A program made the position numbers and the translations under genes. This document shows positions 24,846-56,517 of a DNA stretch of 64,000 nt, piece after piece. The DNA is from a virus, in the IMG/VR virus record IMGVR_UViG_3300030085_004215, positions 1 through 64,000 of that record. The stretch is one strand, 5' to 3'. The notes below the pieces were generated by a model. The model did no database searches. It saw only the letters and a list, made by a program, of their open reading frames with translations, and was not told the DNA's origin. Numbering within the stretch: the first letter of the stretch is position 1; each line of letters begins with the position of its first letter.

Positions 24846-25248
24846 TGGAGCTGGGGGGATTCGAACCCCCGTCCTGCATATATTTTATAAATAGTCATTC
24901 ACAGCTTAGTTTGGTTCCAAATCGGTAGTCACCAACAACCCACCATGTCTCACTTTACTCAGAGTGGTTTAACTGATGAAATTTTATACTCTATCACACG
25001 AGTGGATGTCTAACTTATTTTATGACCGAGTGTTAGACAACTCAGTATCTTAAGCCGCGTAGGCGTAAGATGGTTGGGAATCACCGATTGGTAATTCTGA
25101 GTAATCATACTCAGTCAAATGCCAATCTATCACCAACCCGTCTAGCGATTGTTCGCCAATTGAGTTTCGTTGAGTTTTATTTAAGAGTCTACTCAAACTC
25201 TGCTGCACTAACTTACAAAACGATACCAGTCGATTTCCAGTCAGCCCC
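24846..25248 (-). ncRNA. ssrA: tmRNA (transfer-messenger RNA)
   Basis: 5' GGGGCTGACTGGAAATCGAC and 3' GGACGGGGGTTCGAATCCCCCCAGCTCCA form an Ala acceptor stem with G3-U70; internal tag frame ends YAYAA-TAA at 25050-25052; CCA not encoded. Confidence 0.93.
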
Positions 25249-30837: not shown

Positions 30838-31096
30838 TTACTACTCCTTTTTTTTTATTATGCTTCTCCGATAGAACCAGATGCTATTCCGTCTTCGAAC
30901 AACATCTCTAACATTCCATCACTTACTTCTTTAGAGAATTTTTTATATTTAACATTATTTTCCATATCAAACTTAATTACATCATCTATAAGTTTTGATA
31001 TAAGTGGTAATGATTTACCTTTTGCTACTTTTTCTATTTCTTCTAATCTGTTTACTAATGTCATAATATCCATTGCTTTTTCCTAATTAAATTTTG

Positions 31097-31170
31097 AGTG
31101 CTGGACAGGATTCGAACCTGCGAATAATGGATTTGCAATCCACCCCATTAAACCACTCTGGCACCAGCAC
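31097..31170 (-). tRNA. tRNA-Cys(GCA)
   Basis: GTGCTGG/CCAGCAC acceptor stem, U discriminator, anticodon arm GTGGA-TTGCAAA-TCCAT, GGTTCGAATCC T-arm. Confidence 0.93.
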
Positions 31171-31420: not shown

Positions 31421-31865
31421 ATGCCCTTAATATAAGTATAAAACATAATACAAGTCAAGTATTATTTTTAACTATTTTTATATGGATTAGTTTTTGTTAA
31501 ATCTGCTCCAACCCAACCTTTAGATTCAGAGTAAACCATTTTAAACCTACGACCTAAACCACTAACATCCTTAGATACTCTAACGACCTTGTAATTTTTA
31601 TTCCATTTACTACTAAACATTCTTTTCATAACAGAAGTAATATACCAAGTTTTACTTGTATCGTTAATATTAACATGGTCTGTAAAACTCATAGTTTTAC
31701 CATTGATTTTATTTCTCATTAAAAACCTAAATGATGTCATTTCACTTTTCCAATTCATTATTTTTTCCTTATTTTTGTTACTTAAATATAAGGCTTTTTT
31801 ACTATACAAGTCAAGTGTTTTTTTCATTTTTTTTTAATTGGGGAGAAATTAATCTCCCCAATCGA

Positions 31866-32696
31866 TTAGTTTTTCTCCCAATATCCCAATTTAGGTGCTA
31901 TATAAGTGGGTCTGTCTAACCACTTACTTAAAGTAACTTCTGCTTCCACTTCGGGTGAAATATCAAAGTCATTATATCTATGTAGTAAATCTGCAACTAT
32001 AGGATGTCTAACAACATCTCCTAAATCAAATCTACAAAAACCACATCCATAAACACCAGTAAATCTCTTAACACTATCCTCCAAACCATTATCCGTTTTG
32101 GTTCGTAAATCACTCTGTTGCAAATCTCCACTAACGATATATTTAGAACCCAAGCCAATTCTCGTTAGAAAAGTTTTGATTTGTGATGGTGTAGAGTTTT
32201 GTGCCTCATCTAACATTACAATTTTATTCTGTAGTGTTAAACCTCTCATGTATGCAAGTGGAATAACTTTTATTATTCCAGCTTTTCTCAATACATCCAA
32301 TCTCTGCTTACCGATTATCTGTTCCATATTATAATATACTGATTGCATAAATGGTTCAGTTTTCTCATCAATATCACCAGGTAAATATCCTATCCTTTCA
32401 CCGTCTACCTCAACCATAGGTTTGGTGACAATAATACCGTCAAAGTTAGAATTTTTATCTGCAATACTCTGTAATGCCCAATATGTTGCAACATATGTCT
32501 TACCACAACCTGCAGGCCCAACACAAAATGTAATAGTATTGGTATCAATATTATCCCAAAACTTTTGTTGATTTCGTGTTTTTGCTTTAAAATCCCATTT
32601 GATTCTTTTCATTTGAGACAGTGCTTGTCGATGGTTTGCACATTCTTGATTACTTACAACCTTTGTAATAGTTTCAACTTTTCGTTTTCTACTCAT
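31866..32696 (-). CDS. phoH: PhoH-family ATPase
   Basis: GPAGCGKT, GYLPGD, YMRGLTL, DEAQN, LTRIG, GDLQQSD, VRHP. Confidence 0.95.
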   Translation of the reverse strand: MSRKRKVETITKVVSNQECANHRQALSQMKRIKWDFKAKTRNQQKFWDNIDTNTITFCVGPAGCGKTYVATYWALQSIADKNSNFDGIIVTKPMVEVDGERIGYLPGDIDEKTEPFMQSVYYNMEQIIGKQRLDVLRKAGIIKVIPLAYMRGLTLQNKIVMLDEAQNSTPSQIKTFLTRIGLGSKYIVSGDLQQSDLRTKTDNGLEDSVKRFTGVYGCGFCRFDLGDVVRHPIVADLLHRYNDFDISPEVEAEVTLSKWLDRPTYIAPKLGYWEKN

Positions 32697-32765
32697 AATA
32701 ACATCCCCTTTGAGTTAATTAGTTGTAAACCTGGGTTCAATTATAAATAGAATATATATTGTTGT

Positions 32766-33707
32766 TTACTTTATTTTTATACCACCTTTTAATGGATTTC
32801 TTATTTTTTTCTCTGAAGTTTTTTCTTCTATTTTCAGCTCACTATCACTATCACGATTTTCGACAATGTCAAGTTTTTTTTCAATTTTTTCTCGTTTTAA
32901 TATATTATCTTTTTTCTCACCATATACTTCCCACCACTTTTTTATTTTTTTATTTTTTTTCAAAAAAGGCTTCGAAGCTGCTCCAGTTTTTCCAGAATCT
33001 TCTTTTTCTTTAAGTAACAGTGCTTGGTTAAATGCTATCACCAACATTACAGCCAATGGGTCAAAGACGAATATTAAGACGAATATAAAAAAACTAACTA
33101 CAGTATCCACATCGGTGTTAAAAGTTCTAGCTAAATAAATTGCAGGTCCTACATCAACTCCAGTCTCAACGAGTGCAATTTTTAAATCACCTATCTCTTG
33201 TTTAAGACTCATCATAGTTGTATTAACTTCATTTATTTTAGGTTGATACTCTTCCCTAAGTTTTCTTTTGGCAGTTCTGTAATTATCAGGTAGTTCAGAT
33301 ACTGCGGCTTCTAACTCTTCTTTTAAAAACTTTTTATCCTCTGATAATTGTTTTAATCTATCTTCTTTATATAATAGTGCTGTTGATTCTTTTTCAAAAG
33401 TTACTGTTGCACCTTGATAGGCATTGGATAAATATCCAAATATTCCAGCAGAGGTTATTAATATCAATACCACAGTTGCTATTGATAAATAAACTTTTTG
33501 TAGGTAATTTATTTTATCCCAATATCTGTATAGAAATGCAGCAGTAACCAACTTACCAAATTCTAATGAACCTGCCATGATGATTACTGATAATGTTGCA
33601 CCACTAAATAATTTACTCAATCCAAATACTGAATAAAAACCTGCACTACCAGCAATTAGTAATGCAGCAATCCCCAAAAATATATGAAAATTCTTGGAGC
33701 GTTCCAT
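32766..33707 (-). CDS. Multi-pass membrane protein with coiled coil
   Basis: Three N-terminal TM helices, a coiled coil, a fourth TM (FVFDPLA), Lys-rich tail. Confidence 0.6.
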   Translation of the reverse strand: MERSKNFHIFLGIAALLIAGSAGFYSVFGLSKLFSGATLSVIIMAGSLEFGKLVTAAFLYRYWDKINYLQKVYLSIATVVLILITSAGIFGYLSNAYQGATVTFEKESTALLYKEDRLKQLSEDKKFLKEELEAAVSELPDNYRTAKRKLREEYQPKINEVNTTMMSLKQEIGDLKIALVETGVDVGPAIYLARTFNTDVDTVVSFFIFVLIFVFDPLAVMLVIAFNQALLLKEKEDSGKTGAASKPFLKKNKKIKKWWEVYGEKKDNILKREKIEKKLDIVENRDSDSELKIEEKTSEKKIRNPLKGGIKIK

Positions 33708-33927
33708 AGTTTTCTCCTATTTATTCTTCTTCAAGTTCTATTAGATTTTGTAGGTGTTCTAATTGCTTTTCAACTCCAATTATCATCCTTAACCACTGTT
33801 CAAATCGTGGGTCGGTATCAGTTGGAATACGGTCTTTTAATCTACCTAATTCAGCTTCGATGTAAGACACCCTGTCTAATACTTCATTTTTTCTACGCAT
33901 AATTAACCTCTATTATTATATAAATAT

Positions 33928-34650
33928 CTAAATTATCTCTAAGTTGTTATAAAATTCATTTTTTATGTATTTTTGTATATGTTCTGCTGCGATTTTATCT
34001 GCCTCTGAACTTGGGTGGTGGTCTAAAACTCCTGTATTTGGTGGGTGTATATCATCTTCAACATACACAGATGGTAGGTCCCAATCGCGACCACAAAAAT
34101 ATTGTTCAGCCATCTTTCTTTGTCTCTCATTAGTAATATCAGTTTCGGTTTTACACATACCCTTTTGACCAGTTAAATTTAAATGTGTATATCTCAAACC
34201 AGAATCTTTCCACCATTGTAACATTCGTTCCTCAAAATCATCAATCCCATGATATTCCATGTTGTAGGGATGTCTGTACGGCCACCCACCTGTAGAATAT
34301 ATAAAGTACACTAAGTTTTGTTGTTCTTCGTAATAACTCGTCAACACACCACAATAGTATTCAAGGAACTCATCTAAGAACTTTGGATTATCTTTAAATG
34401 TTTTATAAAACTCTGTACACCAGTGTTGTGTATTTCTTCTATCTGTTTTTGAGTAGCGGTCATACATAAACTGAATAGACCGAACCATGCCAGGTATCGT
34501 GAATACGGTGATGTCCGCATTTTGCCTTGCCTTAGCAGATTTACTCCAAATCGTCTCAACCCCACCTCCATAATATTTCATCTCACCTAACTTATTGTCT
34601 ATCCATTTTGGAAATGTATTCCAACTATCTCCTATATAATATACTTTCAT
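33928..34650 (-). CDS. SGNH/GDSL-like hydrolase
   Basis: N-terminal IGDSW and C-terminal DHHPS motifs. Confidence 0.45.
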   Translation of the reverse strand: MKVYYIGDSWNTFPKWIDNKLGEMKYYGGGVETIWSKSAKARQNADITVFTIPGMVRSIQFMYDRYSKTDRRNTQHWCTEFYKTFKDNPKFLDEFLEYYCGVLTSYYEEQQNLVYFIYSTGGWPYRHPYNMEYHGIDDFEERMLQWWKDSGLRYTHLNLTGQKGMCKTETDITNERQRKMAEQYFCGRDWDLPSVYVEDDIHPPNTGVLDHHPSSEADKIAAEHIQKYIKNEFYNNLEII

Positions 34651-34652
34651 GT

Positions 34653-35186
34653 CTATATCATACCTAATTGATGTAAAATATATTCTTTTAATGGTTCTTT
34701 ATTATCTGCTGGAGTATGCACCCATGTCCACGCCATTGTTGTTTTCATAGTTTCTATATTACCTACGATTGCAGTTATTTGTTTTTTAAACTCACTAATC
34801 ATTTTATCATCTAATAATATTTCTGCACCAACCTCATCTGCAATATCCAATAACTTACCTAAATCTTTTTTCTTATTTGCTTCATTTGCTTCTTTAAATT
34901 TTTCATCATCACCACCTTTATCAGGATGTGTTTTTCCAGCAACTTTTCGATACAATTGTTTAAAGGTATCATCCTCAACTTCAGTATCAATTATTAAATT
35001 ATTATCATCCTCTACTTGCTGTGGTGATTCTTTTAATTCTTGTGGATTTTGCATAAACTTACGAAAATCGGTATTGAATTGTTCTACACTTCTTTTATAT
35101 ATTACACGAGTTTCTTCAAGTTCTAATTGTAAAAATCGAAGTTGTTGTCGAATTTTCTTTTGGTGTAACTGTTGCTGGATATCCAT
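34653..35186 (-). CDS. J-domain (DnaJ-like) protein
   Basis: KQLYRKVAGKTHPDKGGDDEKFKEANEA. Confidence 0.8.
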   Translation of the reverse strand: MDIQQQLHQKKIRQQLRFLQLELEETRVIYKRSVEQFNTDFRKFMQNPQELKESPQQVEDDNNLIIDTEVEDDTFKQLYRKVAGKTHPDKGGDDEKFKEANEANKKKDLGKLLDIADEVGAEILLDDKMISEFKKQITAIVGNIETMKTTMAWTWVHTPADNKEPLKEYILHQLGMI

Positions 35187-35372
35187 TTAAATAACTATGG
35201 AATATCTTCGAATTCTGCATCAATTACCTTATAACATATATAATATTTATTGCCCTTTCTTAGGACAGCTTCTGCAAATGAATATTGTTTTTTTAATTCT
35301 TCAATGTTGAAACCACAATCTACATCCACTATCCCAAGAAGAGCAAATAAATCATTCTGTACTTTGATTAAT

Positions 35373-35846
35373 TTAGGAAATCTTGACAGAATGCTTTTTT
35401 GGTTTTTCGGGTTCTATTTTAGGTATATCAATAGAAAGAACACCATCAACAAATGATGCGTTTATATTCTCACCATCAAGTAATTCACCTAATTCAAAAG
35501 AACGCTTGAATGAAGAGTGTTTGAGTTCTCTACGGATGACCTTTGCTTTAACATCATCAAAAAAACCACCCTTGTTACCAGAAATTGTAAGGACACCGTC
35601 CTCAACATCTATTGATAAATCCTTTTTGGATAAACCAGGTATTTCTGCTATAACACCAACCTTATCATCATACTCATATACATTTACTTTTGGATATGCA
35701 GTACCTTGATATGGTTTTACTCCAACTTGTTTTTCAATCTCTGGAAATTGTTGTGAGACCATTTGGTCAAACAATCTATCGAATGGTGTTAGAAAATTAT
35801 CCCTGTCGATTATAGGGAATGGATTACGGACAACTACTTTAGTCAT
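35373..35846 (-). CDS. Small heat-shock protein Hsp20
   Basis: YPKVNV...AEIPG...GVLTISG...F.RSF.L...A...DGVLSI.IPK; start moved to ATG 35846 behind an AGGAG SD. Confidence 0.92.
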   Translation of the reverse strand: MTKVVVRNPFPIIDRDNFLTPFDRLFDQMVSQQFPEIEKQVGVKPYQGTAYPKVNVYEYDDKVGVIAEIPGLSKKDLSIDVEDGVLTISGNKGGFFDDVKAKVIRRELKHSSFKRSFELGELLDGENINASFVDGVLSIDIPKIEPEKPKKHSVKIS

Positions 35847-35881
35847 TTTACTTCTCCTGTTTTGTTTACTTTTAGCCAAAC

Positions 35882-35939
35882 TTATATCCTCACTTGAGCG
35901 ATATAATTATTATAGTAATCAATCTCATACGAGCATTGA
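35882..35939 (-). promoter_or_regulatory. Tandem bulged-G hairpins in the hsp20 5' UTR
   Basis: UCAAU-G-CUC-GUAU-GAG-AUUGA and UUAUAUC-G-CUC-AAGU-GAG-GAUAUAA. Confidence 0.5.
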
Positions 35940-36128
35940 ATTTTTACTACATATATAAATATATGTTGTCAAACTTTTATTAAAATTTTTTTTGGTATAT
36001 TCCAAATTCTACCCATGCTATCCTTGACTCGAACCTCACTTACTTTAGATGAATCATCCCAAAAGTTTACTATTTCATCTTTGTATAAAACACCATCAGG
36101 TGTTGGGTAATCTGATAATACTTTATAT

Positions 36129-36455
36129 CTATTCTTCTTCATCCTCACCCTCAATAGATTCATCTTGAGCAAAATCTTCTTCTTCTAAATCTATTGGATA
36201 GTAAAGTTGAAATTTAGATATTAGCAACTCTGGGTCTTGTACTCCAACCATAGTTTCTAATACTTTACCATCAGAAACTATTTTAATAGTAGGAACACTT
36301 TTTACTCGATAACTCTCAGCAAGTACAGGGTCTTCATCTATATCTTCAATGTAAAGGGGATAACCTAAACTATCTAATTTTTCTATTATGGGCTTAAATG
36401 TTGTACATGGCCCACACCATTTTGCACTAAAATAATAAAACCTAATATCATCCAT
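36129..36455 (-). CDS. Thioredoxin
   Basis: FSAKWCGPC and SVPT. Confidence 0.88.
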   Translation of the reverse strand: MDDIRFYYFSAKWCGPCTTFKPIIEKLDSLGYPLYIEDIDEDPVLAESYRVKSVPTIKIVSDGKVLETMVGVQDPELLISKFQLYYPIDLEEEDFAQDESIEGEDEEE

Positions 36456-36528
36456 TATTCACTCCACTCTATATATTTGTAACTTTGTGTAGTAGTTTTG
36501 GTAGCGTAATCTACAACTATTTCATATA

Positions 36529-36777
36529 TCATTTTCCAATAGACTCCAATATTTTACTTCGTGGTTGAGCACCAATAAATCTACTGATTTCATTACCATT
36601 TTCTTCTATTACAGTTGTGGGTACACTACGAACATTATATTGTCTTGCCATATCCTCTTGCGAGTCAATATCTATAAATTCGATATTATGACCCTCTGAT
36701 GATAATTGTTCCATAATTGGTTTATATGATTGACAAGGCCCACACCAAGTTGCACTAAAATATTTTATCGATTTCAT
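36529..36777 (-). CDS. Thioredoxin
   Basis: FSATWCGPC and SVPT. Confidence 0.88.
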   Translation of the reverse strand: MKSIKYFSATWCGPCQSYKPIMEQLSSEGHNIEFIDIDSQEDMARQYNVRSVPTTVIEENGNEISRFIGAQPRSKILESIGK

Positions 36778-36843
36778 CGCTTTTTCCTAAATAGTATAGT
36801 TGGTGGTCCAACTCGTTTTTTCTTATCTAACAAAGATTCCTCT

Positions 36844-37230
36844 TTAACTTCCGAAGATTTTTTTCTTTTCACCGTGGTACTCGTAGGCATGACCATTTTC
36901 CTTAAGCAATTCATTTACGGATTTCTCGTGCCCCTTAACAAATATCTCTCCAAGTACACGACCATATTTACCACGACCATGAGATATAATACTGAACTTA
37001 CCATCGTCTGAATTTTCTAAAAGGTCTTTTACATATTCTTTTGCTGCCAAACCTTTTTTCTTTTCTTCCAAATCTCTTGTTCTACTTTCCCATGTATCAA
37101 CACCATAAAATCTAATTCTTGATTTTACCCATACATCAAAACCTAAATCAATCATAGCATCACAGGTATCACCATCAACAACCCTATCTAACTTACAACT
37201 ATAACCATGTTTTTTTACTTGTTTTCCCAT
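36844..37230 (-). CDS. Thermonuclease (SNase-like)
   Basis: RVVDGDT, RIRFYGVDTWE, GKYGRVLG, VNELLKENGHA. Confidence 0.85.
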   Translation of the reverse strand: MGKQVKKHGYSCKLDRVVDGDTCDAMIDLGFDVWVKSRIRFYGVDTWESRTRDLEEKKKGLAAKEYVKDLLENSDDGKFSIISHGRGKYGRVLGEIFVKGHEKSVNELLKENGHAYEYHGEKKKIFGS

Positions 37231-37846
37231 AATATTTTCCTATTAAAGCCTTCTAATTCCAAATTGGTGGCCTATCTTTTTTAGACAGACAGCACTATTA
37301 TTAAATATACCATCGTTAATAGATTCGACAGCATTTTCTAAATCTGCAAAATCAAAAGGGATTTCAAATATCTGGTTATTATATTCATATGTGGTATTTT
37401 TCTTTTTGTAAATCAATTCACATTGTTCGAATACCTCTCTAAAATTTTGATACGCAGCATAGTCTCCAGCAAAACCTGCTACTTTATCTGATAAAATTAA
37501 ATATTTGTTATAATCAATCATCATTTATTTACCTGCTTCCAATTCACAACTTAGATGGTTAGTTCCACTACCTATATAATCATAATCAACTTCTGAAGTA
37601 TCTTCATCGCAGTATTCACAAATCCATTCGTTTACTATTCCTTCTGCTAAATGATTAGCATGAAAGCGTATACCTGATGAAGTATTTAAATTATCTGATT
37701 TAATATTTTGTTCAATCTCAGATGCTAACTTAGTTCTGAACGCATCAGAACTAATATTAGCTTGTGAATCTTTATGTTTATCAATAGTGTATTTTATTAC
37801 TTTATACATAACTAAAAATAAATATCAAGTTCCTTTCTCAAAATGT

Positions 37847-37897
37847 AAAAAAAATGGCGGGATGGAAAAGAAAGGAAAATAAAAAAACCACCCCGCC
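37847..37897 (-). terminator. Intrinsic terminator after the AAA+ gene
   Basis: GGCGGGGTGG...CCATCCCGCC stem followed by a T-run on the minus strand. Confidence 0.55.
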
Positions 37898-37906
37898 TGG
37901 TCAACA

Positions 37907-39064
37907 TTAGCTGACCGAATCTGTATCTGCTTCGTTAAACAAATCGTCAGAAGAACCATCAGAAATATATTTCTGAACTAATTGTTTTACAAAAGTTCTC
38001 TCGGAATCAATCCCACCTTCATCAGCAAATTGAGGATAGATACTAACCTCTGCAGCTTCATCAAGTCCAAAACCATCATAAATTAAACCAGTCATTTCAA
38101 CTGATGTTCTTGTAGATACACCATTTGAAACTTTACCAGTATCAGATTTGGATTCCATACGAGTAGTATGAGCAATTTCTGAAACTGCTTTTAGTAAATC
38201 TGGTTCTACATTAGGAAACATATAACTTAGTAAACCTAATTCTTGCTCATCATCAAGAACATCCATCTCAACGATAGTGAATCTATCCATAAGAGCTTTA
38301 TCCATAACACGAGTAGAAGTATACTCGTTACCAATGTTAGCAGTTGCTACAAAGGTAACACCCTCAGCGACTGGGATAGTTTCCTGTCCACTAGCCTCAT
38401 CAAGCCTTAGGTATCTTTGACCTTGGTCAAGAACTGTCATCAAAATATTCCAAGCATCTGGATGAGCTCTTGATAACTCATCAAGAAGAATCACAGCGTT
38501 AGGTGTTTGAATAGCCTTTACAAAAAGTGATTCTGAAAAGTAAGTACCTTTCTTCTTATCAAAGTGAACATTACCAATCAAGGTAGCTCTTGGGTCTTGA
38601 GTAGAACCCATATTGAAATAAAAGTCAGGCCTATCAAGAGAATTAACCAATGATTTAGAAGCCATGGTTTTACCACAACCAGCCGGGCCAGTCATCAAAA
38701 TATTCTTACCACGAACAGCAGAACGGATAAGGTACTTCCACTTAAGTTCACTCATAACCAAACCTTTAGGTTTTAGGTTATATGAAGAGTGAATAAAATT
38801 TAAGATTTCAGCGTGTTCACTTGGAACCTCAACTGAAGATAAATCAATTGTAGGAGCCGAAGTTTTTTCGAACTCACTCATTGGTACAACCCACCAATAG
38901 GTTTTACCAGATTTATTAACTCTCTGTTCAAGAGCCATACCCTTTTCAAAAGCTCGTTTACGAGCTGATATTGAAATTGATGAGGTATGTTTGTTTCCAT
39001 CGGCATCCCATGCGTTGAAACGATTACCAGATTTTTCTACTTTTACGATTAGTGATTTATTCAT
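37907..39064 (-). CDS. MoxR/CbbQ/CobS-like AAA+ ATPase
   Basis: GPAGCGKT, ILLDELSRA, FVATAN, ALMDRF, STR. Confidence 0.88.
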   Translation of the reverse strand: MNKSLIVKVEKSGNRFNAWDADGNKHTSSISISARKRAFEKGMALEQRVNKSGKTYWWVVPMSEFEKTSAPTIDLSSVEVPSEHAEILNFIHSSYNLKPKGLVMSELKWKYLIRSAVRGKNILMTGPAGCGKTMASKSLVNSLDRPDFYFNMGSTQDPRATLIGNVHFDKKKGTYFSESLFVKAIQTPNAVILLDELSRAHPDAWNILMTVLDQGQRYLRLDEASGQETIPVAEGVTFVATANIGNEYTSTRVMDKALMDRFTIVEMDVLDDEQELGLLSYMFPNVEPDLLKAVSEIAHTTRMESKSDTGKVSNGVSTRTSVEMTGLIYDGFGLDEAAEVSIYPQFADEGGIDSERTFVKQLVQKYISDGSSDDLFNEADTDSVS

Positions 39065-39615
39065 ATTTATTTTCCTTTTGTTTTCTTTATTTTTTCTTTA
39101 TTTTCGATACCTTAATATAAGGCTTTTTGCCTATACGAGTCAAGTGTTTTTTTCACTTTTTTTAAATTATTTTTAAACATTAACTAATACCATCCAAAAA
39201 TAAAATGTAGCAAATATTAAACTACAAGTTAAAAACTCTGCTATTCTATAACCAATTAATTTCCAATTCATAATTATTTTTCCTCTATTGTTAATTCTGA
39301 GTTTTCTAAAGTATCTTTTAAAGAGTATAAACTATCTAATGCAGAATCTATTGATACACGAGCATCTGAATTTGCGTTGTACTCTGGCATCTGAATGATA
39401 GCATCATCGAGTTCTGCTTCAATTATTTCTAATTCTACTAATATTTCTTTTTTAGTCATTACTTTTTCTCCTTATTTGGGTAAACTATTTTATCCATTTC
39501 AGCAAAAAATTCATCCATATCTTTTTGTATTTCTTCAAAAATTGTTTTCACTTTCAAATCCTTTATTTTTTTCTCATTTTTCATACCTTAATATACGGCT
39601 TTTTTACTATATAAG

Positions 39616-40335
39616 TCAAGTGTTTTTTTCATTTTTTTTAAAAAAAGTCGTAAAATTAGGCCCATAATCGTGGTTATTACCATATTTTTTCTTAAAATAT
39701 TGAGTATAATACTCCCTTACACCTGGTCTACCATCAATAGATAAATCAAAATCCCTACCTACATAATCAGCTAATATCTTATAATTACCTGTCGTTCCCA
39801 TTGTATCTGTTTTCCAAGAAGTGGTCAACATCACACCATCAGGCCCATCAAAGAATTTTCCTGGCCCATCTATGATAACTAAATCTACATTCTTGTGTTT
39901 TTCTAAATCATGTTTATATATAACTGAATTCCAATCAGGTTCTGTTTTATCATCAGTATAACATTCTACATATTCCATACAATTATCTGGGTCAAATCCA
40001 AGTTCTTTCAATCTATCATAATATACTTTAATATTTTCATAAGAGTAGTATTCAAAATTCCAATCTACTGTATGCTTAATCTTATGAAGTAACAATGTAG
40101 TAAATCCCGCACCATACTCAATAACATGCTGTAGTTTTTGTTCTAAAATTTTCTTAACTTGTGAATGATAAAACTTAAAATGTGCACCGACTGGATTTGG
40201 GCCATGATAATCTAAATGACCATATTGTTCATGTATATCCAACATATATTGACAGTATAGTGGATATTCTGACATGAATAACTCCGTGCCACCACTTTTA
40301 TTATTTTCCGTTTCTCTATATTCTTTTATATTCAT
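39616..40335 (-). CDS. Class I SAM-dependent methyltransferase-like protein
   Basis: VIEYGAGFTT and DLVIIDGP motifs. Confidence 0.55.
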   Translation of the reverse strand: MNIKEYRETENNKSGGTELFMSEYPLYCQYMLDIHEQYGHLDYHGPNPVGAHFKFYHSQVKKILEQKLQHVIEYGAGFTTLLLHKIKHTVDWNFEYYSYENIKVYYDRLKELGFDPDNCMEYVECYTDDKTEPDWNSVIYKHDLEKHKNVDLVIIDGPGKFFDGPDGVMLTTSWKTDTMGTTGNYKILADYVGRDFDLSIDGRPGVREYYTQYFKKKYGNNHDYGPNFTTFFKKNEKNT

Positions 40336-40345
40336 TTTTTAGGAG

Positions 40346-40418
40346 TGGAGCTGACAGGGTTCGAACCTGCGACCCCCACAGTGCAAGTGTGGTGCTCTCC
40401 CAACTGAGCTACAGCCCC
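40346..40418 (-). tRNA. tRNA-Ala(UGC)
   Basis: GGGGCTG/CAGCTCC-A acceptor with G3-U70, TAGCTCAGTTGGGAGAGC D-arm, TTGCA anticodon loop, GGTTCGAACCC T-arm. Confidence 0.95.
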
Positions 40419-40618
40419 ATGTTATTATATATTTAATTAATTACTTTTCTGCCACCAATGAAGTTTACCTTTGTCATCTTCAAAGCATTCCCAATCACAA
40501 TATACCCAAACACATTTCCAAGAATAAATAATATATTGGTTTTCATCTTTTGGTTTCATACTCCAGCCACAAGGACAGACTGGAGTATTTCCGAACCATT
40601 TTTTTAATAACCACTTTA

Positions 40619-42703
40619 TCACTTTTCCAAGAACTTTTTGTTCATTGTTTTAGCAACTTGTAAAACATTTTGAACATCAATATATTGAGCATCATTACCA
40701 TACATTTTCTTAAAGTTTGATTTCTCGCTATCAGAACTGTAGCTTGAATCACTAACAAAGTAAGATAAAACCTTAACACCCATTTTACGAATAGCTTTAA
40801 CTTGTTTGTTAGTATGAATTAATGCCTGGCCATGATTGTAACTAATTTCATTGTTATTAAACATTGGCATTCCATCTGAAAAATTTAAGAAGTATGAATC
40901 ACGATTTCTTGATGTAGGAACAATATCTTTCAGTATTGCTTCAAAACATAAACCTTCTGGTGTTGTTCCGCCAGGGTGAATATTTTTAAACATATTTCTA
41001 ACTTTCATAAAACTATCAGTACGAGAATCATAACCAATTAAAATTAAAGGAAGCGTATCTGAATTTCTACCATAACTACGATTTGTATTGTGAGTACTTC
41101 TAAAACTAACAACCACATCCACATTTGAAATCATGTCAACTGCCTTACAAATAGCAACAACTGATACCATTGTATTGAACCATTTATCCCCACCCATAGA
41201 ACCACTAGCATCAACTGAGATATGTAAGAACGCATCTGAATAAGATTCAACAAATGTTTGTTGAAAAACTCTATCATTACCAAAACCTAATTCAGCAATT
41301 AATCTCTTATCAATACGACCAGAATCTAATCTGTTCCATTTTAAATCACGAGATTCTCCACGAACTTGTAACTTACGACCTAACTTACTACCAAGTTTAA
41401 CACCCTTAATAATAGCATCTTCATAACCTCTTGTCCAAGTAGTTAGTACTGATGGGAACATATTTTCATCAATCATAGTTTGAGTAAGTTTTTTTACATA
41501 GATACAAGCAACACCTTTACCTGCAACATATCTACCTTGTTTATTATCCCAAACTTCACCAACACCCTCACCTGTATTAACTTTTTCAACACCAGCTTCT
41601 TCCATAGTTTTAACAATTTGATTATCTTTTTTAGTGAGAGTACCTTGTTTTTTAGTATCACCATTTACAAAATCTTTTTGTTTTGAAAATTGTTTACTAA
41701 GTTGTCTTTTTTGATTATTAGTAAGTTCTTCAACCTTACCTGGAATTTGTTCACCATCTTCATTACCACCCTCAGAACCTTCACCAGAACCCTCAAGTTG
41801 TGGATTATCACCAGTAACAGGTTGATTTTTTGTATCACCGAATTCATCAGTAACCTCTTTACCATCAGCCAAACAATCAAGAATAAGTTTGTATACTTGA
41901 GTTGCAACTTTATATGCTTCTTCAGTAGAATTCATTTTCTTGATATTACTAAAAATTAGTCTGTATATTTTATCAAGACCAGGTAGTACATCTAATCTAC
42001 GATTTTCATTAGTTAGATTTAAGATTCTGAAAATGTATGAATCCCAATCTAAATCAGTATACTCATTTGTTTTAAGTGCTTTATCAACAACTTTAGAGTG
42101 AAAATACTTATCATACATTGAATGATAATAACCTTTATAACCAGGTGAATTTGAGAACACATAATAATCAATTCTTCTATCTTCTACATAGTTCAATAAA
42201 TTTTTAAGATGTCCAAGAATATCAAATCTATCAAAACCTTTCTTCTCACCTAATACAAAAAGTTCTTCAGGTGTATTTTGTTCAAGATTTCTTAAGAAAT
42301 CAAAATCTGAAAGTTTAATATGAGAACCCTCATGAAGTGCTAACCCAACAACTGGGTCAAAGTTTTTCTCATCAATCTTGGAACCTATAACAACTGTTTT
42401 ACCATCTGTATATGAATCACCACGAGTTTGAAATTTAACATTTATATCAGAACGACTTGTTACAATAGTAACAAAGTTAGATATTGCTCTACGATAAGAT
42501 GCCAATTGTACATGGTCAGCACCTTTCTTGACTGGTTCATCATCAATGAACTCACTTCTACGAGTATCCCACTCAGTATCAGCCCAAAAAGAACTGAAAG
42601 GGTTTGTATTTTTAGATAGGTTTTTAGCACTATATTTTTCACGAAGTGCCATTGGGTTAAAATGTTTTAGTTTTGAATCCATTATTTTTTCCTTATTTTT
42701 CAT
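40619..42703 (-). CDS. CobT-like protein: N-terminal metallopeptidase-like domain plus C-terminal VWA domain
   Basis: HEGSH and NYVEDRRI; SGRID; MIDAS DASGSM, GTTPE, FSDG. Likely partner of the AAA+ ATPase. The SD-led start is probably the second Met. Confidence 0.8.
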   Translation of the reverse strand: MKNKEKIMDSKLKHFNPMALREKYSAKNLSKNTNPFSSFWADTEWDTRRSEFIDDEPVKKGADHVQLASYRRAISNFVTIVTSRSDINVKFQTRGDSYTDGKTVVIGSKIDEKNFDPVVGLALHEGSHIKLSDFDFLRNLEQNTPEELFVLGEKKGFDRFDILGHLKNLLNYVEDRRIDYYVFSNSPGYKGYYHSMYDKYFHSKVVDKALKTNEYTDLDWDSYIFRILNLTNENRRLDVLPGLDKIYRLIFSNIKKMNSTEEAYKVATQVYKLILDCLADGKEVTDEFGDTKNQPVTGDNPQLEGSGEGSEGGNEDGEQIPGKVEELTNNQKRQLSKQFSKQKDFVNGDTKKQGTLTKKDNQIVKTMEEAGVEKVNTGEGVGEVWDNKQGRYVAGKGVACIYVKKLTQTMIDENMFPSVLTTWTRGYEDAIIKGVKLGSKLGRKLQVRGESRDLKWNRLDSGRIDKRLIAELGFGNDRVFQQTFVESYSDAFLHISVDASGSMGGDKWFNTMVSVVAICKAVDMISNVDVVVSFRSTHNTNRSYGRNSDTLPLILIGYDSRTDSFMKVRNMFKNIHPGGTTPEGLCFEAILKDIVPTSRNRDSYFLNFSDGMPMFNNNEISYNHGQALIHTNKQVKAIRKMGVKVLSYFVSDSSYSSDSEKSNFKKMYGNDAQYIDVQNVLQVAKTMNKKFLEK

Positions 42704-42756
42704 ACCTTAATATACGGCTTTTTTTATATATAAGTCAAGTGTTTTTTTTACTTTTT

Positions 42757-45856: not shown

Positions 45857-46102
45857 TTAAGTTCCTTCATTTATAAGTTCCTTTTTTGGATATTCCATGA
45901 AAAAGTATTTATCCAATATTTCTAACTTATCATCATATTCAGCCATAATCTCTAACTCTTTTTCTATCGTTTCCATAATATCAGGATGTTCAGCAACACC
46001 TACAGTATTCTGTAATAAGTTCTCTACATTGATTCGATGTTTTTCAATATGTGCTTTAAAATGCAATCTACTTGCTTTTAATATTTGTTTTCTTATTGCC
46101 AT
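45857..46102 (-). CDS. Hypothetical phage protein
   Basis: 81-aa ORF in a coupled operon (VGVAEHPDI motif). Confidence 0.55.
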   Translation of the reverse strand: MAIRKQILKASRLHFKAHIEKHRINVENLLQNTVGVAEHPDIMETIEKELEIMAEYDDKLEILDKYFFMEYPKKELINEGT

Positions 46103-46584
46103 TGTTTTGTTCCTTTAAAATTAAGTTTTCGTTTCTTCTTAAGATGAACCTCTGAGTTAGTTTTTTTTCTATGACAAGGTTTACATAATGTCTGTAGATT
46201 CTCTAACTTATAATAACTCCAATCTAAATCTTTTGCCTTTACTCCCTTTTGTTCTACTAATGGTCTGATATGGTCACAATCCCATCTTCTTGTTATCACA
46301 CCACAATGATTACATTTCCCTCTATCTCGTTTTCTCAAATGTGCTCTTTGTTCTCTTGAATGATATATTATCATATACTCCGTAGCACAATCTTCATGCC
46401 AACTCTTTCTCTCATTGATGGTTCCATCTTCTTTGATAATCATCTTACCACACCATCTACACATTCCTTTTATTTTCGTATAATAACTATCAGGTTTTGG
46501 TGGTTTTCTAAAATCACCATCCCACTCCTCTTTTTCTTTTCCAAATGTTCTCTCGTGTCTCCTACCAAATCTACTTAATGGCAT
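46093..46584 (-). CDS. HNH endonuclease
   Basis: RDRGKCNHCG...DHIRP...NLQTLCKPCHRKKT. Confidence 0.85.
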   Translation of the reverse strand: MPLSRFGRRHERTFGKEKEEWDGDFRKPPKPDSYYTKIKGMCRWCGKMIIKEDGTINERKSWHEDCATEYMIIYHSREQRAHLRKRDRGKCNHCGVITRRWDCDHIRPLVEQKGVKAKDLDWSYYKLENLQTLCKPCHRKKTNSEVHLKKKRKLNFKGTKQWQ

Positions 46585-51962: not shown

Positions 51963-53690
51963 TTACTTTGTTGTCAAATCGAATACTTTCATATTTTTCC
52001 ACCCATTTACTTTGGTGAGGTCTTTCTTATCAATAACCACTATTCTTTCCACACCTCTTACTTTGTAATGTGTATTACCATAATCTCTGATATTGGTTTT
52101 GAGTTTATTAAAATGGTTATCATTTTCTCCACCATGTACCCAAACCATAGTTCTGAAAGGTTTCATGTGGTCTGGAGTTTCCATCTGAATCCTGGCCAGA
52201 AATTCAGTATAGTGGTAATCATCCATTACATCTATCTGAAACTCTAACAAATCATATTTATCATTTTCATCCACTTGGTGAACCAAATCCAAATTATGTG
52301 GATACACTTTCTGTAAATCCTCTTTCCAACTACTATCTAATGTATCAACATTCCTGTCAAGTACTCTACCCATATTCAATAGTGTATTACTATGTAGTGG
52401 ATGAGTATCATCTTGTAGAATTTTTACAATTTCGGATACCTCATTCTTCTCTTGTGATGAATGTACGGTTCCTTTAGTTTTATGTTCCCAACCCATATCC
52501 AATACGAGTTTTCTCAAAAATGTTTTAATTTTCTCTTGAAATTTGGTATCACTAATCTTGGTCTTATCACGACCAGAGGGATTATCTGGAGATGAGGGTA
52601 GTATTTGGATAACTAATTTACGATAGTTATATCTTGAATCCCATGTACGAGTATGTTCACTATATAACCCAATTTCAAATAATCTAACCCTATTCGGTCC
52701 AAGTACATCAATGGTTGGGAAAGACCTATCTCCACCTTTGGAATCCCATAGAAATACATTATCCTCACCAACCCTATTCTTAAAATCCTCGAACTCGGCC
52801 GAGTTTTCAGGTGGTATCACATCCGTGTAATAAACTGATATATGATACTCCTTATCACCATCTTTAATTTTATGGAAATTACCTAAAACATCGTCCTCTT
52901 GGTTTACTGAGGGTATCATATCCTCAATAGTGGTAACAAGATTATCACCAAATACTGGTAAGTATAGTTTATTATTAGAACCAGTATTATCACCAATTTT
53001 GAAGTTTATACTAACATCAGTATTGTTGAATCTTCTACGAGTAAATTTTCTAATCTTGTAAAAATCAAAATTAAGACCTAAATCACTATATAGATTTATC
53101 TTATCGAAGAAACCAGTATATTCTCCACCTTGACCATGTAGTTTAAGAAAATCAACAAGACCAACAGAATAGAAATCTACTGAGATTCCTACACAATGAT
53201 TCATAAATTGTCTTTTAGAAATATTATGAATATCATCCTCTAAAAAATTCTGATTATCGAATTCATAATTAAATTTACCAATGATATAAGTATCACCAGA
53301 AATTTTGAAACCAACATAATCTCTAATCCCAATTTGATACATCCCTAATGAACCACCAATTCCGGCCAGGTCAATAGAGTAATCACTTGGTTTTTTCTTT
53401 TTACCAGTTTTTCTTCTGATAAAGTTACTTATCACAAAATTCATTCCAGAGTTTTCATCAACCACCTCTGGTCGTTTTGTTAATCCAACACCATTATCCG
53501 AATGGATAAATATATTATTATCAATATGGTTAAGAATCTTTCTTGATTCATAATCAAATGAGTTATCGTCTTGTTCGGCCGAGATATTCTCATCGGTGAA
53601 ATCGTTCTCCAATGGTTGGACAGTAATCCAACTATGTAAATCTTCACCAATATCATAACTACCGATTTTGTTTAATTTTGAAAAATCCAT
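51963..53690 (-). CDS. Hypothetical 575-aa protein, possible N-terminal GHKL-type ATPase
   Basis: QPLEN, SDNGVG and AGIGG resemble the GHKL N/G1/G2 boxes; own early-type promoter. Confidence 0.45.
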   Translation of the reverse strand: MDFSKLNKIGSYDIGEDLHSWITVQPLENDFTDENISAEQDDNSFDYESRKILNHIDNNIFIHSDNGVGLTKRPEVVDENSGMNFVISNFIRRKTGKKKKPSDYSIDLAGIGGSLGMYQIGIRDYVGFKISGDTYIIGKFNYEFDNQNFLEDDIHNISKRQFMNHCVGISVDFYSVGLVDFLKLHGQGGEYTGFFDKINLYSDLGLNFDFYKIRKFTRRRFNNTDVSINFKIGDNTGSNNKLYLPVFGDNLVTTIEDMIPSVNQEDDVLGNFHKIKDGDKEYHISVYYTDVIPPENSAEFEDFKNRVGEDNVFLWDSKGGDRSFPTIDVLGPNRVRLFEIGLYSEHTRTWDSRYNYRKLVIQILPSSPDNPSGRDKTKISDTKFQEKIKTFLRKLVLDMGWEHKTKGTVHSSQEKNEVSEIVKILQDDTHPLHSNTLLNMGRVLDRNVDTLDSSWKEDLQKVYPHNLDLVHQVDENDKYDLLEFQIDVMDDYHYTEFLARIQMETPDHMKPFRTMVWVHGGENDNHFNKLKTNIRDYGNTHYKVRGVERIVVIDKKDLTKVNGWKNMKVFDLTTK

Positions 53691-53754
53691 TTCTTAATTC
53701 CTTGTATTTTCTTTATTTATTATACCTAAATATACGAACAAAAACATATATGTG

Positions 53755-54210
53755 TCAAGAGTTTTTTTCATAAATTTTTATTTTATGGTACATTTTATTT
53801 AAGGCCTCTTTTTGTTTCGGTGTAACCCGACCATATCGTTTTACCCCTTTTAGAACACTAGTCAAAAAGGATAAACTACTATCTTTCCATTTATCAGTAC
53901 CATCGGCCTCTTTTACTAAAAACATCAACTTAGTTATTTTTTCTTCTATACTCTGTATCTTCTCAACTCGTTTTGGGTCGTCATTTTCTTTTCTCCATTT
54001 CACATAACCATCTATAATTTTTTGGATTGCCGATTCCATCTTAGGTGTTATAGTTCTACCACCACTAATTGCATTAGTCATACTATGGACAAATTCCTTG
54101 TAACCGTCATTCATATAGTAATCACCGTCTGAGATGATGTAACTCAGTTGTTGGTGTTGTTTTTTGAATTTGTCCATATTATCGACAATCCTATGAGGGA
54201 CTTTACTCAC
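53755..54210 (-). CDS. Hypothetical protein with two internal repeats
   Basis: FVHSM...GRTITPKM and FLTSV...GRVTPKQ repeats. Confidence 0.55.
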   Translation of the reverse strand: MSKVPHRIVDNMDKFKKQHQQLSYIISDGDYYMNDGYKEFVHSMTNAISGGRTITPKMESAIQKIIDGYVKWRKENDDPKRVEKIQSIEEKITKLMFLVKEADGTDKWKDSSLSFLTSVLKGVKRYGRVTPKQKEALNKMYHKIKIYEKNS

Positions 54211-54214
54211 TTAC

Positions 54215-54415
54215 TTAGAAATCCTCCAGGAGTTCATCAAGTTCACTATCCATTCCATCAAAATCATTGATGAATCCATCATTCAATGTATCGAACATCA
54301 CATTATCCATCTTCATATCGTCAAGTGACATTTTTTTGGTTCCATATCCAACATCTTTAGTAGATGTATGTTTTTTGAGTTTTTTTGGTTTATTGACCAT
54401 TTTGTTTTTCTTCAT
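54215..54415 (-). CDS. Small hypothetical protein (basic N-terminus, acidic C-terminus)
   Basis: Start moved to 54415, behind an AAGGA SD and the promoter at 54442-54471. Confidence 0.55.
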   Translation of the reverse strand: MKKNKMVNKPKKLKKHTSTKDVGYGTKKMSLDDMKMDNVMFDTLNDGFINDFDGMDSELDELLEDF

Positions 54416-54504
54416 TGTTTTTCCTTTATTTATCATGGTTAAATATACAAAACTTTTACTATATGTGTCAAGTGTTTTTTTCACTTTTTTAATTTTTTTT
54501 TTCG

Positions 54505-55023
54505 TAAGGAGTTGGTGGGAAGTACTCCGCCCTCCCACCATATGAGAATCAGAACTAACTACCGATATTAATTTCGCCACCTCGGTAGAGGGTGACCTTA
54601 AATCTTTCGATTGATGTCCGATGTGCTCTTCCGTTCCACCTCGGTAAAACATTTTCTACAAAGGGTCTGTGTTCCCTATAGAAGTAATCAAACCATGTAC
54701 CATCAATCTAAATCTTAGTGTTGGACTGGTTCTCCTCTTTATTCGCGAGTTCAAGGATATTCCGAGTTGTCCGTAGACTTTCATTTTAAGGTTCTCACAC
54801 CACTCAATCCCTACTCCTCTTTCGTGAACTGAGCCAACAAAATCTTTGGTGGTCTTTGTCTATGAGTTCCACCTTCTCTCATCTGCCTCATTATTCTTGA
54901 TTCTACCGAGGACTTTAGTAGAACCCCACATTCTTCTTACCCTATCCCGTCTTTACCCAATGTGGTAGGTGGGATTCAACAGGTTTTCATTAGTTCATCG
55001 GTTTATTTTCTCCTCATTTATCA
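54505..55023 (-). ncRNA. Candidate large structured non-coding RNA (~500 nt)
   Basis: Own promoter (55030-55059), no credible ORF, GC-richer than flanks, several helices and 5'/3' complementarity. Confidence 0.55.
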
Positions 55024-55225
55024 TACCTAAATATACGGCTTTTTTACTATATAAGTCAAGTACTTTTTTCATTTTTTTTCAATTTTTTTTTATCATTAAT
55101 ATCTAAATCTATTACACACCCTAAACAAATTTCTGGATAAAAAATCATTTTACCATCTAATGGACCAGAACAAACCTTACAAGTAATTTCTTCCAGTCCG
55201 ATAGTCATTAATGGTTTTTTCATTT

Positions 55226-55591
55226 TTAAAACAATTCTCCATTTACTTGGATTAAATCTTGTGTTAATGTACTTGGTTCATCAAAAGATGAAGTGATAAA
55301 TGGACCATCTTCATCTACATCTACATCCCATCCACACCCAACTCTGGCCATTACTTCGTCTACGATTTTATCCTCACCAAATGCAAGTTTATCAAACCAG
55401 TCGTACTTCATATCTAATACTGAAGTAGGATTACTGAAATCAATATCACCATTTTCTAAAATTTTAAAGACATTACCATTAATGGTATCAATTACAGAAT
55501 GGACTTGAAATAAAACTTTTATTTCACTTGTGTCACGATTGTTGTTTTCTAAATATGTTTCTAAGTTCATTATTTTTCCTTTATTTTTCAT
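55226..55591 (-). CDS. Hypothetical early protein
   Basis: Own early-type promoter and shared leader. Confidence 0.6.
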   Translation of the reverse strand: MKNKGKIMNLETYLENNNRDTSEIKVLFQVHSVIDTINGNVFKILENGDIDFSNPTSVLDMKYDWFDKLAFGEDKIVDEVMARVGCGWDVDVDEDGPFITSSFDEPSTLTQDLIQVNGELF

Positions 55592-55635
55592 ACCTTAATA
55601 TACAAAAGAAATACTATATAAGTCAAGTACTTTTT

Positions 55636-56016
55636 TTAATTTTTTTCAGAAAGTTTTGAAAAATATTCATCCTTACTGATACCCAGTCTACCATTAGTTT
55701 TTCTACCCCAAGTAAACTCACTCTTTAGTTTTTTGTTAGACAATACATTAACAAAAAACTCATTAGTTGGATTCTCACAAACAAACTCATAGTTTTTTAA
55801 GAATCTATCCACACCATTCATATCACTACTTTTTGTGAAATACATTCTTTCATATGGTAAATTTACAGTACTCATAGACAATTTGAAATTCTTGAAATAC
55901 TTATTGTACTCAACTCCGACATGTTGGATAGTACCACTTCTTTTATTTACCCAATAAGTGTAAGTACCTTCTTTTAGATGTTTTCTTGTATTCATTATTT
56001 TTTCCTTATTTTTCAT
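55636..56016 (-). CDS. Hypothetical early protein
   Basis: Own early-type promoter and shared leader. Confidence 0.6.
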   Translation of the reverse strand: MKNKEKIMNTRKHLKEGTYTYWVNKRSGTIQHVGVEYNKYFKNFKLSMSTVNLPYERMYFTKSSDMNGVDRFLKNYEFVCENPTNEFFVNVLSNKKLKSEFTWGRKTNGRLGISKDEYFSKLSEKN

Positions 56017-56068
56017 ACCTTAATATACTAAAGAAATAGTATATGTGTCAAGTGTTTTTTTCATTTTT

Positions 56069-56413
56069 TTATAAATAATTTGGACCCGTCCAACTATAAT
56101 AATCTTGGTTCTTATCAAAGATATTACCACGAGTATGTTTTGCTGCTGCATTATATCCTGCGGCCTTGAATACATCACCACACTTCATAGGTAGACCTTT
56201 ATGTTGTCCATCTACTTTTGCAACAAATCCCCAAACACGATTCCTCTCTACAATCTTGTCGAACTTACGACCTGGTTTTATGTCTAATTCTAAATCTCTG
56301 GCATGAGTATGTTTAGACCAGTTGTGATAACTCGTTTGAATACCTTTCAATAGGTTTTCAACACCTGTTTTGTAATCGTTTTTTGGTGGTAATGGTTTAA
56401 TTCCGTTAATCAT
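56069..56413 (-). CDS. Hypothetical early phage protein
   Basis: GRKFDKI...VWGFV...GDVFKAA...RGNI motif; own promoter and AGGAG SD. Confidence 0.65.
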   Translation of the reverse strand: MINGIKPLPPKNDYKTGVENLLKGIQTSYHNWSKHTHARDLELDIKPGRKFDKIVERNRVWGFVAKVDGQHKGLPMKCGDVFKAAGYNAAAKHTRGNIFDKNQDYYSWTGPNYL

Positions 56414-56517
56414 TATTTTCTCCTTATTTTTGATACCTTAATATACGAAGAAAATATAATACGAGTCAAGTACTTTTTTTATATTTTTTGAAGTTTTTTA
56501 ATGAATGGAATAAAACT

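Follow-up and report, generated by a model that had tools for sequence, protein, structure and literature searches.

A modular candidate non-coding RNA with a palindromic hairpin loop in the early region of a marine phage genome

What is made from an early promoter that no gene follows? This question is raised by the interval 54505-55059 on the minus strand of the viral record IMGVR_UViG_3300030085_004215, of which positions 1 to 64,000 (hereafter the window, a stretch of 64,000 nucleotides) were analyzed. The interval begins with a promoter and a leader, continues with ATG-AAC-TAA, and then extends for ~520 nucleotides (nt) without a conserved open reading frame (ORF). It was originally predicted to encode a promoter-driven non-coding RNA (ncRNA), either of a new class or comparable in size to the ROOL and GOLLD RNAs, that might multimerize through a duplicated pairing element. 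Comparison with homologous sequences leads us to regard the interval as very probably a real structured ncRNA composed of modules. We also favor, with less assurance, its description as a ~520-nt ncRNA transcription unit that is driven by the early promoter and consists of a chain of independently folding modules rather than one large fold. The idea of a promoter-driven ncRNA with an evolutionarily maintained structure is borne out by covariation in two modules, a core and a second module upstream of it (module A). The idea of a single fold of ROOL or GOLLD size is not, because conservation is limited to these two internal modules plus a linker hairpin, which in other phages are found apart or reordered.

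The core module and its palindromic loop

The core (54719-54839, minus strand) was first found via loci around a glycosyltransferase gene located 3.5 kb upstream. Searches with nhmmer and BLAST matched 145 nt from the middle of the unit at 94% identity in one contig (L116) and gave a weak match in another (L143), and a three-sequence covariance model (R1) next recovered L148. A three-motif pattern yielded true members in 6 of 6 viral contigs, 21 of 39 metagenome contigs and 1 of 14 genome contigs. Altogether, the family comprises 28 matches of 17 distinct sequences (alignment A3) from marine phage contigs. The one genome-contig member (L208), from a metagenome-assembled genome labelled Planctomycetaceae, has a core unit of the L148 type together with a phage promoter cassette and an HNH gene, and it probably is of phage origin and was binned into a bacterial genome. 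Other routes added little. When the whole unit was compared with 50,697 phage records by BLAST, the result was a single 8% chance-like match, and a neighboring gene of 575 amino acids (aa) used as bait retrieved no loci in viral contigs. With a marker gene (20441-21964; 66 loci), the DNA search of 29 whole records was empty and the two closest contigs stop before the region. The pattern TTGTTG...CGAAAGAGGAGTAGG recovered only the L116 and L143 contigs.

The core consists of a closing helix P1, a long hairpin P2, a 3-base-pair (bp) hairpin P3 with a GUGAGA loop, a UUAAAAUG joiner, a variable hairpin P4 and an arm formed by P5 and P6. The tip loop of P2, GAAAGAGGAGUA (54812-54823, minus strand), resembles a ribosome-binding site and is found in 8 of the 17 distinct cores. 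Among these 17 sequences, 90.8% of the pair cells hold standard pairs, compared with 40.5-47.6% when the partners are slid by 1-3 columns. Nucleotides have changed on both sides in 25 of the 31 pairs, and none of 500 shuffles reaches the observed values. The region 54695-54852 of the window scores 187.6 bits with R1 and 164.5 bits with a further model, R2 (the window being a seed), and independent members score 66.7-186 bits with R1. G-U pairs are frequent (e.g., UG in six sequences at pair 157-174), which argues that the structure belongs to the RNA of the minus strand and not to the DNA. It is also evident that the conserved nucleotides gather in the multi-helix junction, with variable stems outside it.

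The whole window, searched against Rfam 15 at gathering score, contains only a transfer-messenger RNA (tmRNA) and two tRNAs, all outside the unit. At E values up to 10, the region 54300-55250 gave noise only, with no ROOL, GOLLD or manA match, and neither ARAGORN nor the Rfam tRNA and tmRNA models found anything within the unit. The expectation of a new class has thus held in the covariance search against Rfam 15 that had been suggested for it. A full-text search of the literature found no description of this RNA, with motif lists in paper supplements lying outside its coverage. Judged from these sequence comparisons, the core is a member of an uncatalogued marine-phage RNA family. The window tmRNA (24845-25248, minus strand) has the ARAGORN tag GDSQPSYAYAA, and the two tRNAs, tRNA-Cys(GCA) and tRNA-Ala(UGC), lie at 31096-31170 and 40345-40418 (minus strand). 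Resemblances of the unit to RNase P, tmRNA and the signal recognition particle RNA, noted by eye, were dropped, since no Rfam hit backs any of them.

The tip of the P6 hairpin carries the palindrome UCGCGA (54748-54743, minus strand). A perfect palindrome of 6-10 nt is present at this tip in all 17 distinct cores and comes in six versions. As RNA these are UCGCGA (in the window and the L116 group), AUCGAU, AUCGGCCGAU, GUUCGAAC, AUUGCGCAAU and AUUUCGAAAU, and as DNA they read TCGCGA, ATCGAT, ATCGGCCGAT, GTTCGAAC, ATTGCGCAAT and ATTTCGAAAT. The palindrome was scored in 16 of the 17 alignment rows; the remaining row (L143) carries ATCGAT, displaced by the alignment. The P6 loop is 15-16 nt long in 14 of the 17 distinct cores. 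Per 2000 loop shuffles, a palindrome as long as the observed one arose 2-16 times for the 10-mers, 79-90 times for the 8-mer, 163-239 times for UCGCGA and 617 times for AUCGAU. Nothing comparable was seen in the P2 and P4 loops. Pairing between molecules has to contend with the fact that every P6 palindrome can also be read as an intramolecular stem of 1-3 bp with a 4-nt loop. This mini-stem is disfavored, because the central four bases would then vary freely, yet these four letters are themselves palindromic in all six versions. A homo-oligomer held by kissing loops, of the manA, ROOL, GOLLD and OLE type, calls for exposed loops whose self- or mutual complementarity is kept in evolution, and the family has six palindromes at the same loop position. 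Since complementarity kept between copies of one loop is the requirement of a loop-loop dimer, self-pairing is the best mechanistic lead, and the core RNA might, as a tentative proposal, pair with its own copies through the P6 palindrome. Multimerization is plausible in this form; the duplicated element first named as its agent gives way to the palindromic P6 loop as the candidate.

Modules, joints and promoter of the unit

Homologues of the 170 nt that precede the core were found in L175 (81% identity over module A and core), in L159/L180 (75%) and in L176. On the basis of four homologues (alignment A4), module A (54886-54984, minus strand, as are all its parts) is pseudoknotted. It comprises an outer helix (54984-54981 / 54942-54939), a two-part stem (54975-54967 / 54958-54944), a pseudoknot helix formed by CCACAUU (54965-54959) and AAUGUGG (54932-54926), a hairpin UUCUAC/GUAGAA (54923-54901) with the conserved loop UAAAGUCCUCG, and an invariant UGAGG (54890-54886). 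The linker hairpin GGUGG/CCACC (54848-54873, minus strand) has a conserved 16-nt loop, AACUCAUAGACAAAGA. Across the 36 pairs of module A and linker, 95.1% of the cells are paired, compared with 34.7-44.4% in the slid controls, and 18 pairs are altered on both sides, including four pairs of the pseudoknot helix. The covariation among homologues that the original prediction had pointed to as a check is found in this module as in the core. Its CCACAUU/AAUGUGG helix is indeed present and is replaced by CUUAAUU/AAUUAAG and CUCAG/CUGAG in homologues, and its UUCUAC/GUAGAA hairpin also covaries among the four. Similarly, the linker stem changes to GUCGG/CCGAC in L159 and L176, and L143 and L193 have the same GUCGG/CCGAC form.

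The role that had been assigned to the CCTCG of the hairpin loop, pairing with the duplicated element, fared less well and lies within chance. The loop consensus (U/A)AAA(G/A)UCCUC(G/A) is conserved, and UGAGG is found invariant 15 nt downstream in all four homologues. UGAGG is a candidate partner of the CCUC loop that is nearer and conserved, unlike the window-specific CGAGG copies; no pair of the CCUC/UGAGG helix is altered on both sides in the four homologues. Kissing of the P2 loop with CCUC-type loops was considered and rejected, the best complement of 5-6 nt being reached by 50 to 291 of 300 shuffles. A search with a model of module A (R3) returned no member beyond the four known, and its weak hits in L143, L169, L182 and L193 cover linker-hairpin regions.

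Short joints separate the modules. One joint, AAAGAUUUU, is located at 54839-54847, and further AAGAUUU joints are at 54710-54716 and 54600-54606 (minus strand). With three copies in 526 nt, AAGAUUU is ~11-fold enriched over the rest of the strand (0.50 per kb). It stands at a fixed place 5′ of the core (P1) in 10 of the 17 distinct homologues and 3′ of it in 5 of the 17. The joints (54607/54610, 54718/54719 and 54847) are also where contig pieces from DNA and RNA runs break off. We take the AAGAUUU joints to be module borders. RNase E recognizes sites of the RN-WUU type, and by this likeness the joints may be RNase cutting sites, and perhaps also exchange points.

The order of modules differs among phages. 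In L116, the unit is made up of promoter, core, tail hairpin and U-tract terminator, and in L148 and L158 of promoter, core and next promoter. L175 has a module A of the window type fused to a core and tail of the L116 type, and in L176 ~125 nt are inserted between module A and the core. In L143, L193 and L200, a different upstream module with a tRNA-like T arm is combined with the same linker hairpin. This T-arm module is ~200 nt long (L143:18720-18930 and L193:1-200; ~330 nt before the core in L200), with the T arm GGGGGGUUCGAAUCCCCCC. Neither ARAGORN, which was applied to L143 only, nor an Rfam search at gathering score found anything in the L143 copy, and at E values up to 1 the only Rfam signal in L193 and L200 was a partial tmRNA match to the T arm. 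In L148 (19600-19860) and L208, the core promoter is immediately preceded by an HNH endonuclease gene, whose product shares 47% identity over 81 aa with the window ORF 46093-46584.

The 3′ part of the unit (54505-54712, minus strand) is composed of two lineage-specific modules, whose boundary is another AAAGAUUU. Module C1 (54605-54712) has a 12-nt closing complement (54712-54701 / 54616-54605) around two hairpins and holds copy 1 of UACCGAGGUGG (54646-54636). Module C2 (54505-54599) has a hairpin CUACCGA...UCGGUAG with copy 2 (54587-54577). The terminal hairpin GGUGGGA/UCCCACC (54540-54513) is present as predicted and, also as predicted, is without a U-tract, and no terminator-like site was found in 53500-56500. 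The predicted duplication consists of two exact TACCGAGGTGG copies (plus-strand 54577-54587 and 54636-54646), which form the 5′ arms and loop starts of two similar hairpins; as a repeat it is marginal, with one as long in 21 of 500 dinucleotide shuffles. C1 folds with a z-score of -2.80 and none of 200 shuffles folds as well. The z-scores are -1.34 for C2, -1.5 for the whole 3′ part and -2.1 for the whole unit. Such energy scores decide nothing here, because the core has a z-score of -0.05 despite its covariation-backed structure. In three runs, other contigs contain pieces spanning 54557/54558-54607 that lack one base of the loop, which suggests that at least the C2 hairpin is common to other phages. 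A pattern of two TACCGAGGTGG copies matched four loci, and the three examined (L077, L078 and L080) turned out to hold tandem repeats within unrelated coding regions. A pattern for the CUACCGAGGUGG hairpin found one unrelated contig only, and no viral locus was found with the family of the 66-aa downstream gene (alignment A6).

The unit begins with the early promoter TTGACT-18-TATATT (55059-55030, minus strand), preceded by an A-tract that reaches to about 55090. In the alignment of the promoter-plus-leader cassette, there are at least nine near-identical copies (window 53729-56469 and 31758-42738), eight of which precede neighboring genes. Nine further copies of the promoter part alone were matched across the 120-kb virus record. 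The -10 region of the promoter copies is TATATT(T/A)AGG. Most other cassettes lead directly into a gene start. Here the ATG is displaced by four bases and followed by AAC-TAA, and this two-codon mini-ORF (54998-54990, minus strand) sits where the sister cassettes begin their genes. Met-Asn-stop is kept with three different stops, as UAA in the window, AUG-AAU-UGA in L175 and AUG-AAU-UAG in L159, and L176 has AUG-AUA-UGA. The start-stop ORF at the 5′ end may have a role, for example in ribosome loading, or may be a mere leftover of the cassette.

The absence of a real ORF behind this promoter and leader was predicted correctly: only four sense-strand ORFs of at least 20 aa lie wholly inside the interval, with 22 to 42 aa and the longest at 54656-54784. 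A 145-aa frame (54215-54652) overlaps the 3′ part but crosses the terminal hairpin and the next promoter into a 66-aa gene. This next early-promoter copy (54471-54442, minus strand) serves the 66-aa gene (54215-54415) and marks where the non-coding unit ends on its 3′ side. In public annotation, homologues of this gene are called from a start within the promoter, which is thereby rendered as an N-terminal 'MKKTLDLYNKSFVY'. The G+C content of the unit is 42%, compared with about 28-31% in the flanks. The return of GpC, which had been read as a sign of structural constraint, did not stand up: with 6 GpC in 526 nt, the observed/expected ratio of 0.27 is still depleted (0.22 and 0.17 in the flanks), and the raw rise is mostly due to the higher G+C. 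At -20 to -5, GGAG, GAGG or AGGA is found in 28 of 60 minus-strand gene starts (ORFs of at least 100 aa), compared with 10% at random positions, which suggests that Shine-Dalgarno-type sites are in use in this phage. Judged by one glycosyltransferase, its closest cultured relative is a Flavobacterium phage (immuto; 43% identity), whose host group makes little use of such sites.

Sequencing runs also contain the locus. Fourteen DNA runs contain 0.43-0.99 of the sampled words of the stretch. Two metatranscriptome runs have contigs over 54610-54732 (four differences), 54719-54883 and 54797-54847, and a metatranscriptome contig of a relative's module A covers 54880-55028. One of the differences in the metatranscriptome contigs, C54644 to U, preserves its pair as G-U.

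Weighing the explanations

Several points weigh against a transcribed modular RNA. The metatranscriptome contigs may derive from DNA, and they give no strand, ends or level. The core alignment was fitted to the model and is biased in this respect. Of its 28 rows, 24 were collected by a pattern in which GTGAG, TTAAARTG and GAANCAGNCC are set, so that these motifs are invariant in part by construction; the pattern covers neither the stems nor the P6 loop. Minimum-energy folding misses the covarying core structure, as the z-score given above reflects. The structure of module A was derived from the same four sequences on which the module rests. The core family is patchy, with 4 of 35 related records and none of 7 near-complete ones carrying it, and a search of phage immuto with R2 found no core. 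The P2 loop alters in L159 and L176 while the module A loop stays constant, so the two do not co-vary. No homologues of the 3′ part were found by nhmmer over all loci, by patterns or by the route through the downstream gene, and within the 3′ part only C1 folds better than shuffles. In L174 and L179, the core sits immediately before an ORF, as suits a leader role.

A leader is indeed the first alternative that these two loci bring up, since their cores end 20-30 nt before an ORF with a GGAG-type ribosome-binding site. The core junction would then bind a ligand or protein and control the downstream gene in cis, like a riboswitch. The clustering of conserved nucleotides in the junction, with outer stems that vary, fits such a sensor, and manA was likewise first classed as cis-regulatory. 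However, in the window, L148, L158 and L200 the unit is followed at once by a promoter copy belonging to the next gene, and the units of L116, L159 and L193 end in a hairpin and U-tract well before the next gene. The downstream genes differ among loci, and no alternative pairing was seen between the closing helix and a terminator or ribosome-binding site. An expression platform is not apparent either, as the promoter at 54471-54442 follows the unit and the terminators of relatives lie tens of nt from P1. We consider a leader unlikely. The layout first proposed for the locus was one ~500-nt RNA closed by long-range 5′/3′ pairing, with the CCUCG loop switching between the UACCGAGGUGG copies or bridging molecules. 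Its complements do exist: ACCGAU/AUCGGU, GAACUAA/UUAGUUC and a perfect 10-nt CCUCGGUAGA/UCUACCGAGG, the former in module A and the latter in the 3′ part with the second TACCGAGGTGG copy. The 11-nt duplication is marginally unusual, and the minimum-energy fold of the whole unit has GAACUAAU/AGUUAGUUC as its outer helix. All these complements nevertheless turned out to be within chance. A complement of at least 7 nt between the first 60 and last 110 nt was found in 243 of 1000 dinucleotide shuffles, two separate ones of at least 6 nt in 292 of 1000, and one as long as the 10-nt complement in 70 of 500 shuffles. Moreover, relatives retain module A and the 5′ leader without a trace of the 3′ part, the modules occur apart, and the CCUC loop has its invariant neighbor UGAGG in all four homologues. 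A single closed RNA of this kind appears distinctly improbable to us.

The mobility of the modules could instead belong to the DNA, as a recombination cassette of the variable early region or a set of protein-binding palindromes, with exchange taking place at the AAGATTT direct repeats. Palindromes and direct repeats make sense in DNA too, modules have been swapped between phages, the joints coincide with breaks in contig pieces, the promoter cassette recurs throughout, and a homing-type HNH endonuclease gene adjoins the unit in L148 and L208. Compensatory changes, however, hold six helices, whose many G-U pairs would be C-A mismatches on the other strand; the window has a promoter and some relatives have terminators, and G+C is raised only here. 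A DNA-level element is a very remote explanation on these grounds. Still further from the evidence is a decayed or unconventional protein gene, made of small ORFs or a frame with TAG read-through, which we regard as almost certainly wrong. When TAG is read as an amino acid, a 238-aa frame opens (54215-54931, minus strand), and one sense frame is free of TAA and TGA over 119 codons. The 238-aa frame, however, reaches the 66-aa gene only by crossing the core, the 3′ part and the next promoter. The relatives examined, including cores of 95% identity, have stops in all three frames, and core lengths differ by non-multiples of 3. No homology to a decayed protein gene, which the original prediction had named as a refutation, was found (no Pfam hit, best E value 0.15). 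There is no suppressor tRNA in the window, and the other window genes are open under the standard code. The readings of TAG as Q and TGA as W were dropped; the frame is unconserved in relatives and was taken as chance in a purine-rich strand.

Under the explanation that we prefer, a structured ncRNA built of modules, the RNA would be a stable, trans-acting product of early infection. The core would join a second core copy through the P6 palindrome as a loop-loop ('kissing') dimer, and the AAGAUUU joints would be cutting sites that free the modules, points of module exchange, or both. With other exposed loops, the dimers could give rise to larger particles made of RNA only, of the kind reported for manA, ROOL and GOLLD. 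A bolder extension, which at present must count as doubtful, is that the transcript is a kit for an RNA-only particle in which the core dimerizes via P6, and that it represents a new, self-assembling modular class of phage RNA. The P2 loop, the CCUC loop of module A and the 16-nt linker loop would then join dimers into rings, cages or filaments. Such assembly would take place early in infection, alongside the phage's own manA RNA, and might trap or organize a host component, for example ribosomal subunits or tRNAs.

Known phage RNAs and what the unit may mean

The same phage record carries a manA RNA (RF01745; G000:114995-115195, minus strand) 60 kb away, which scores 73 bits against a cut-off of 55.2. 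About 200 non-coding bases upstream of this manA are also conserved upstream of the manA in L193 (about 590-790), and may either extend manA or form another structured RNA. In L193, manA is located about 425 nt downstream of the core, in the same non-coding cluster. One preprint reports kissing-loop assembly of manA RNAs into 8-, 10- and 60-mers (bioRxiv 10.64898/2026.07.01.735769). manA is a structured RNA of ~190 nt from marine phages and metagenomes that stands alone or before genes, and the core is likewise solitary or placed before a gene. The manA RNA is reported in that preprint to self-assemble by loop-loop pairing, whereas the self-pairing loop of the core is a predicted one. The two are different RNAs: the manA model does not match 54300-55250, and the helices and conserved motifs differ.

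ROOL and GOLLD are described, in a second preprint, as phage RNAs near tRNA islands that form cages held by kissing loops (bioRxiv 10.1101/2024.12.08.627333). Like them, the unit is phage-borne, free of ORFs and highly structured, with no known protein partner; ROOL and GOLLD are frequent neighbors of tRNA genes, and in five loci the core is 1.4-8.5 kb away from such genes. In contrast to their single fold of 580-800 nt, the conserved units here are 100-170 nt long and shuffled between phages. T4 offers another likeness in rnaC and rnaD (species 1 and 2), small stable phage RNAs of ~120-140 nt encoded in a tRNA/early-type region, next to a homing endonuclease gene. The rnaC RNA ends in a tRNA-like T arm, as does the extra module of L143, L193 and L200. 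A search with R2 over the T4 rnaC/rnaD region gave nothing (3.7 bits at rnaD; best score 11 bits elsewhere), and the resemblance is one of analogy only. Outside phages, the dimerization initiation site (DIS) hairpin of HIV-1 has a palindrome in a purine-flanked loop, whose sequence changes between lineages yet stays self-complementary. P6 resembles it in carrying a perfect palindrome that varies between lineages within a purine-flanked loop, and differs in its biological setting and in that its dimer is a prediction. To the core family the window adds the composite form, the pseudoknotted module A, the joints and also the palindromic loop.

Phage genomes keep yielding folded RNAs, and several of these (ROOL, GOLLD and manA) are, according to the reports cited above, building blocks of RNA-only cages. 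The modules described here are small (100-170 nt) and naturally shuffled between phages, so that each can be tested separately, and the palindromic P6 loop provides a simple prediction that is backed by evolution. Even if the predicted dimer should fail, the core would remain a solid new RNA family for catalogues of the Rfam type. The unit has a strong early promoter in a variable host-takeover region, and the phage also carries manA, tmRNA and tRNAs. This setting hints that early structured RNAs may routinely help marine phages handle the translation or RNA machinery of their hosts.

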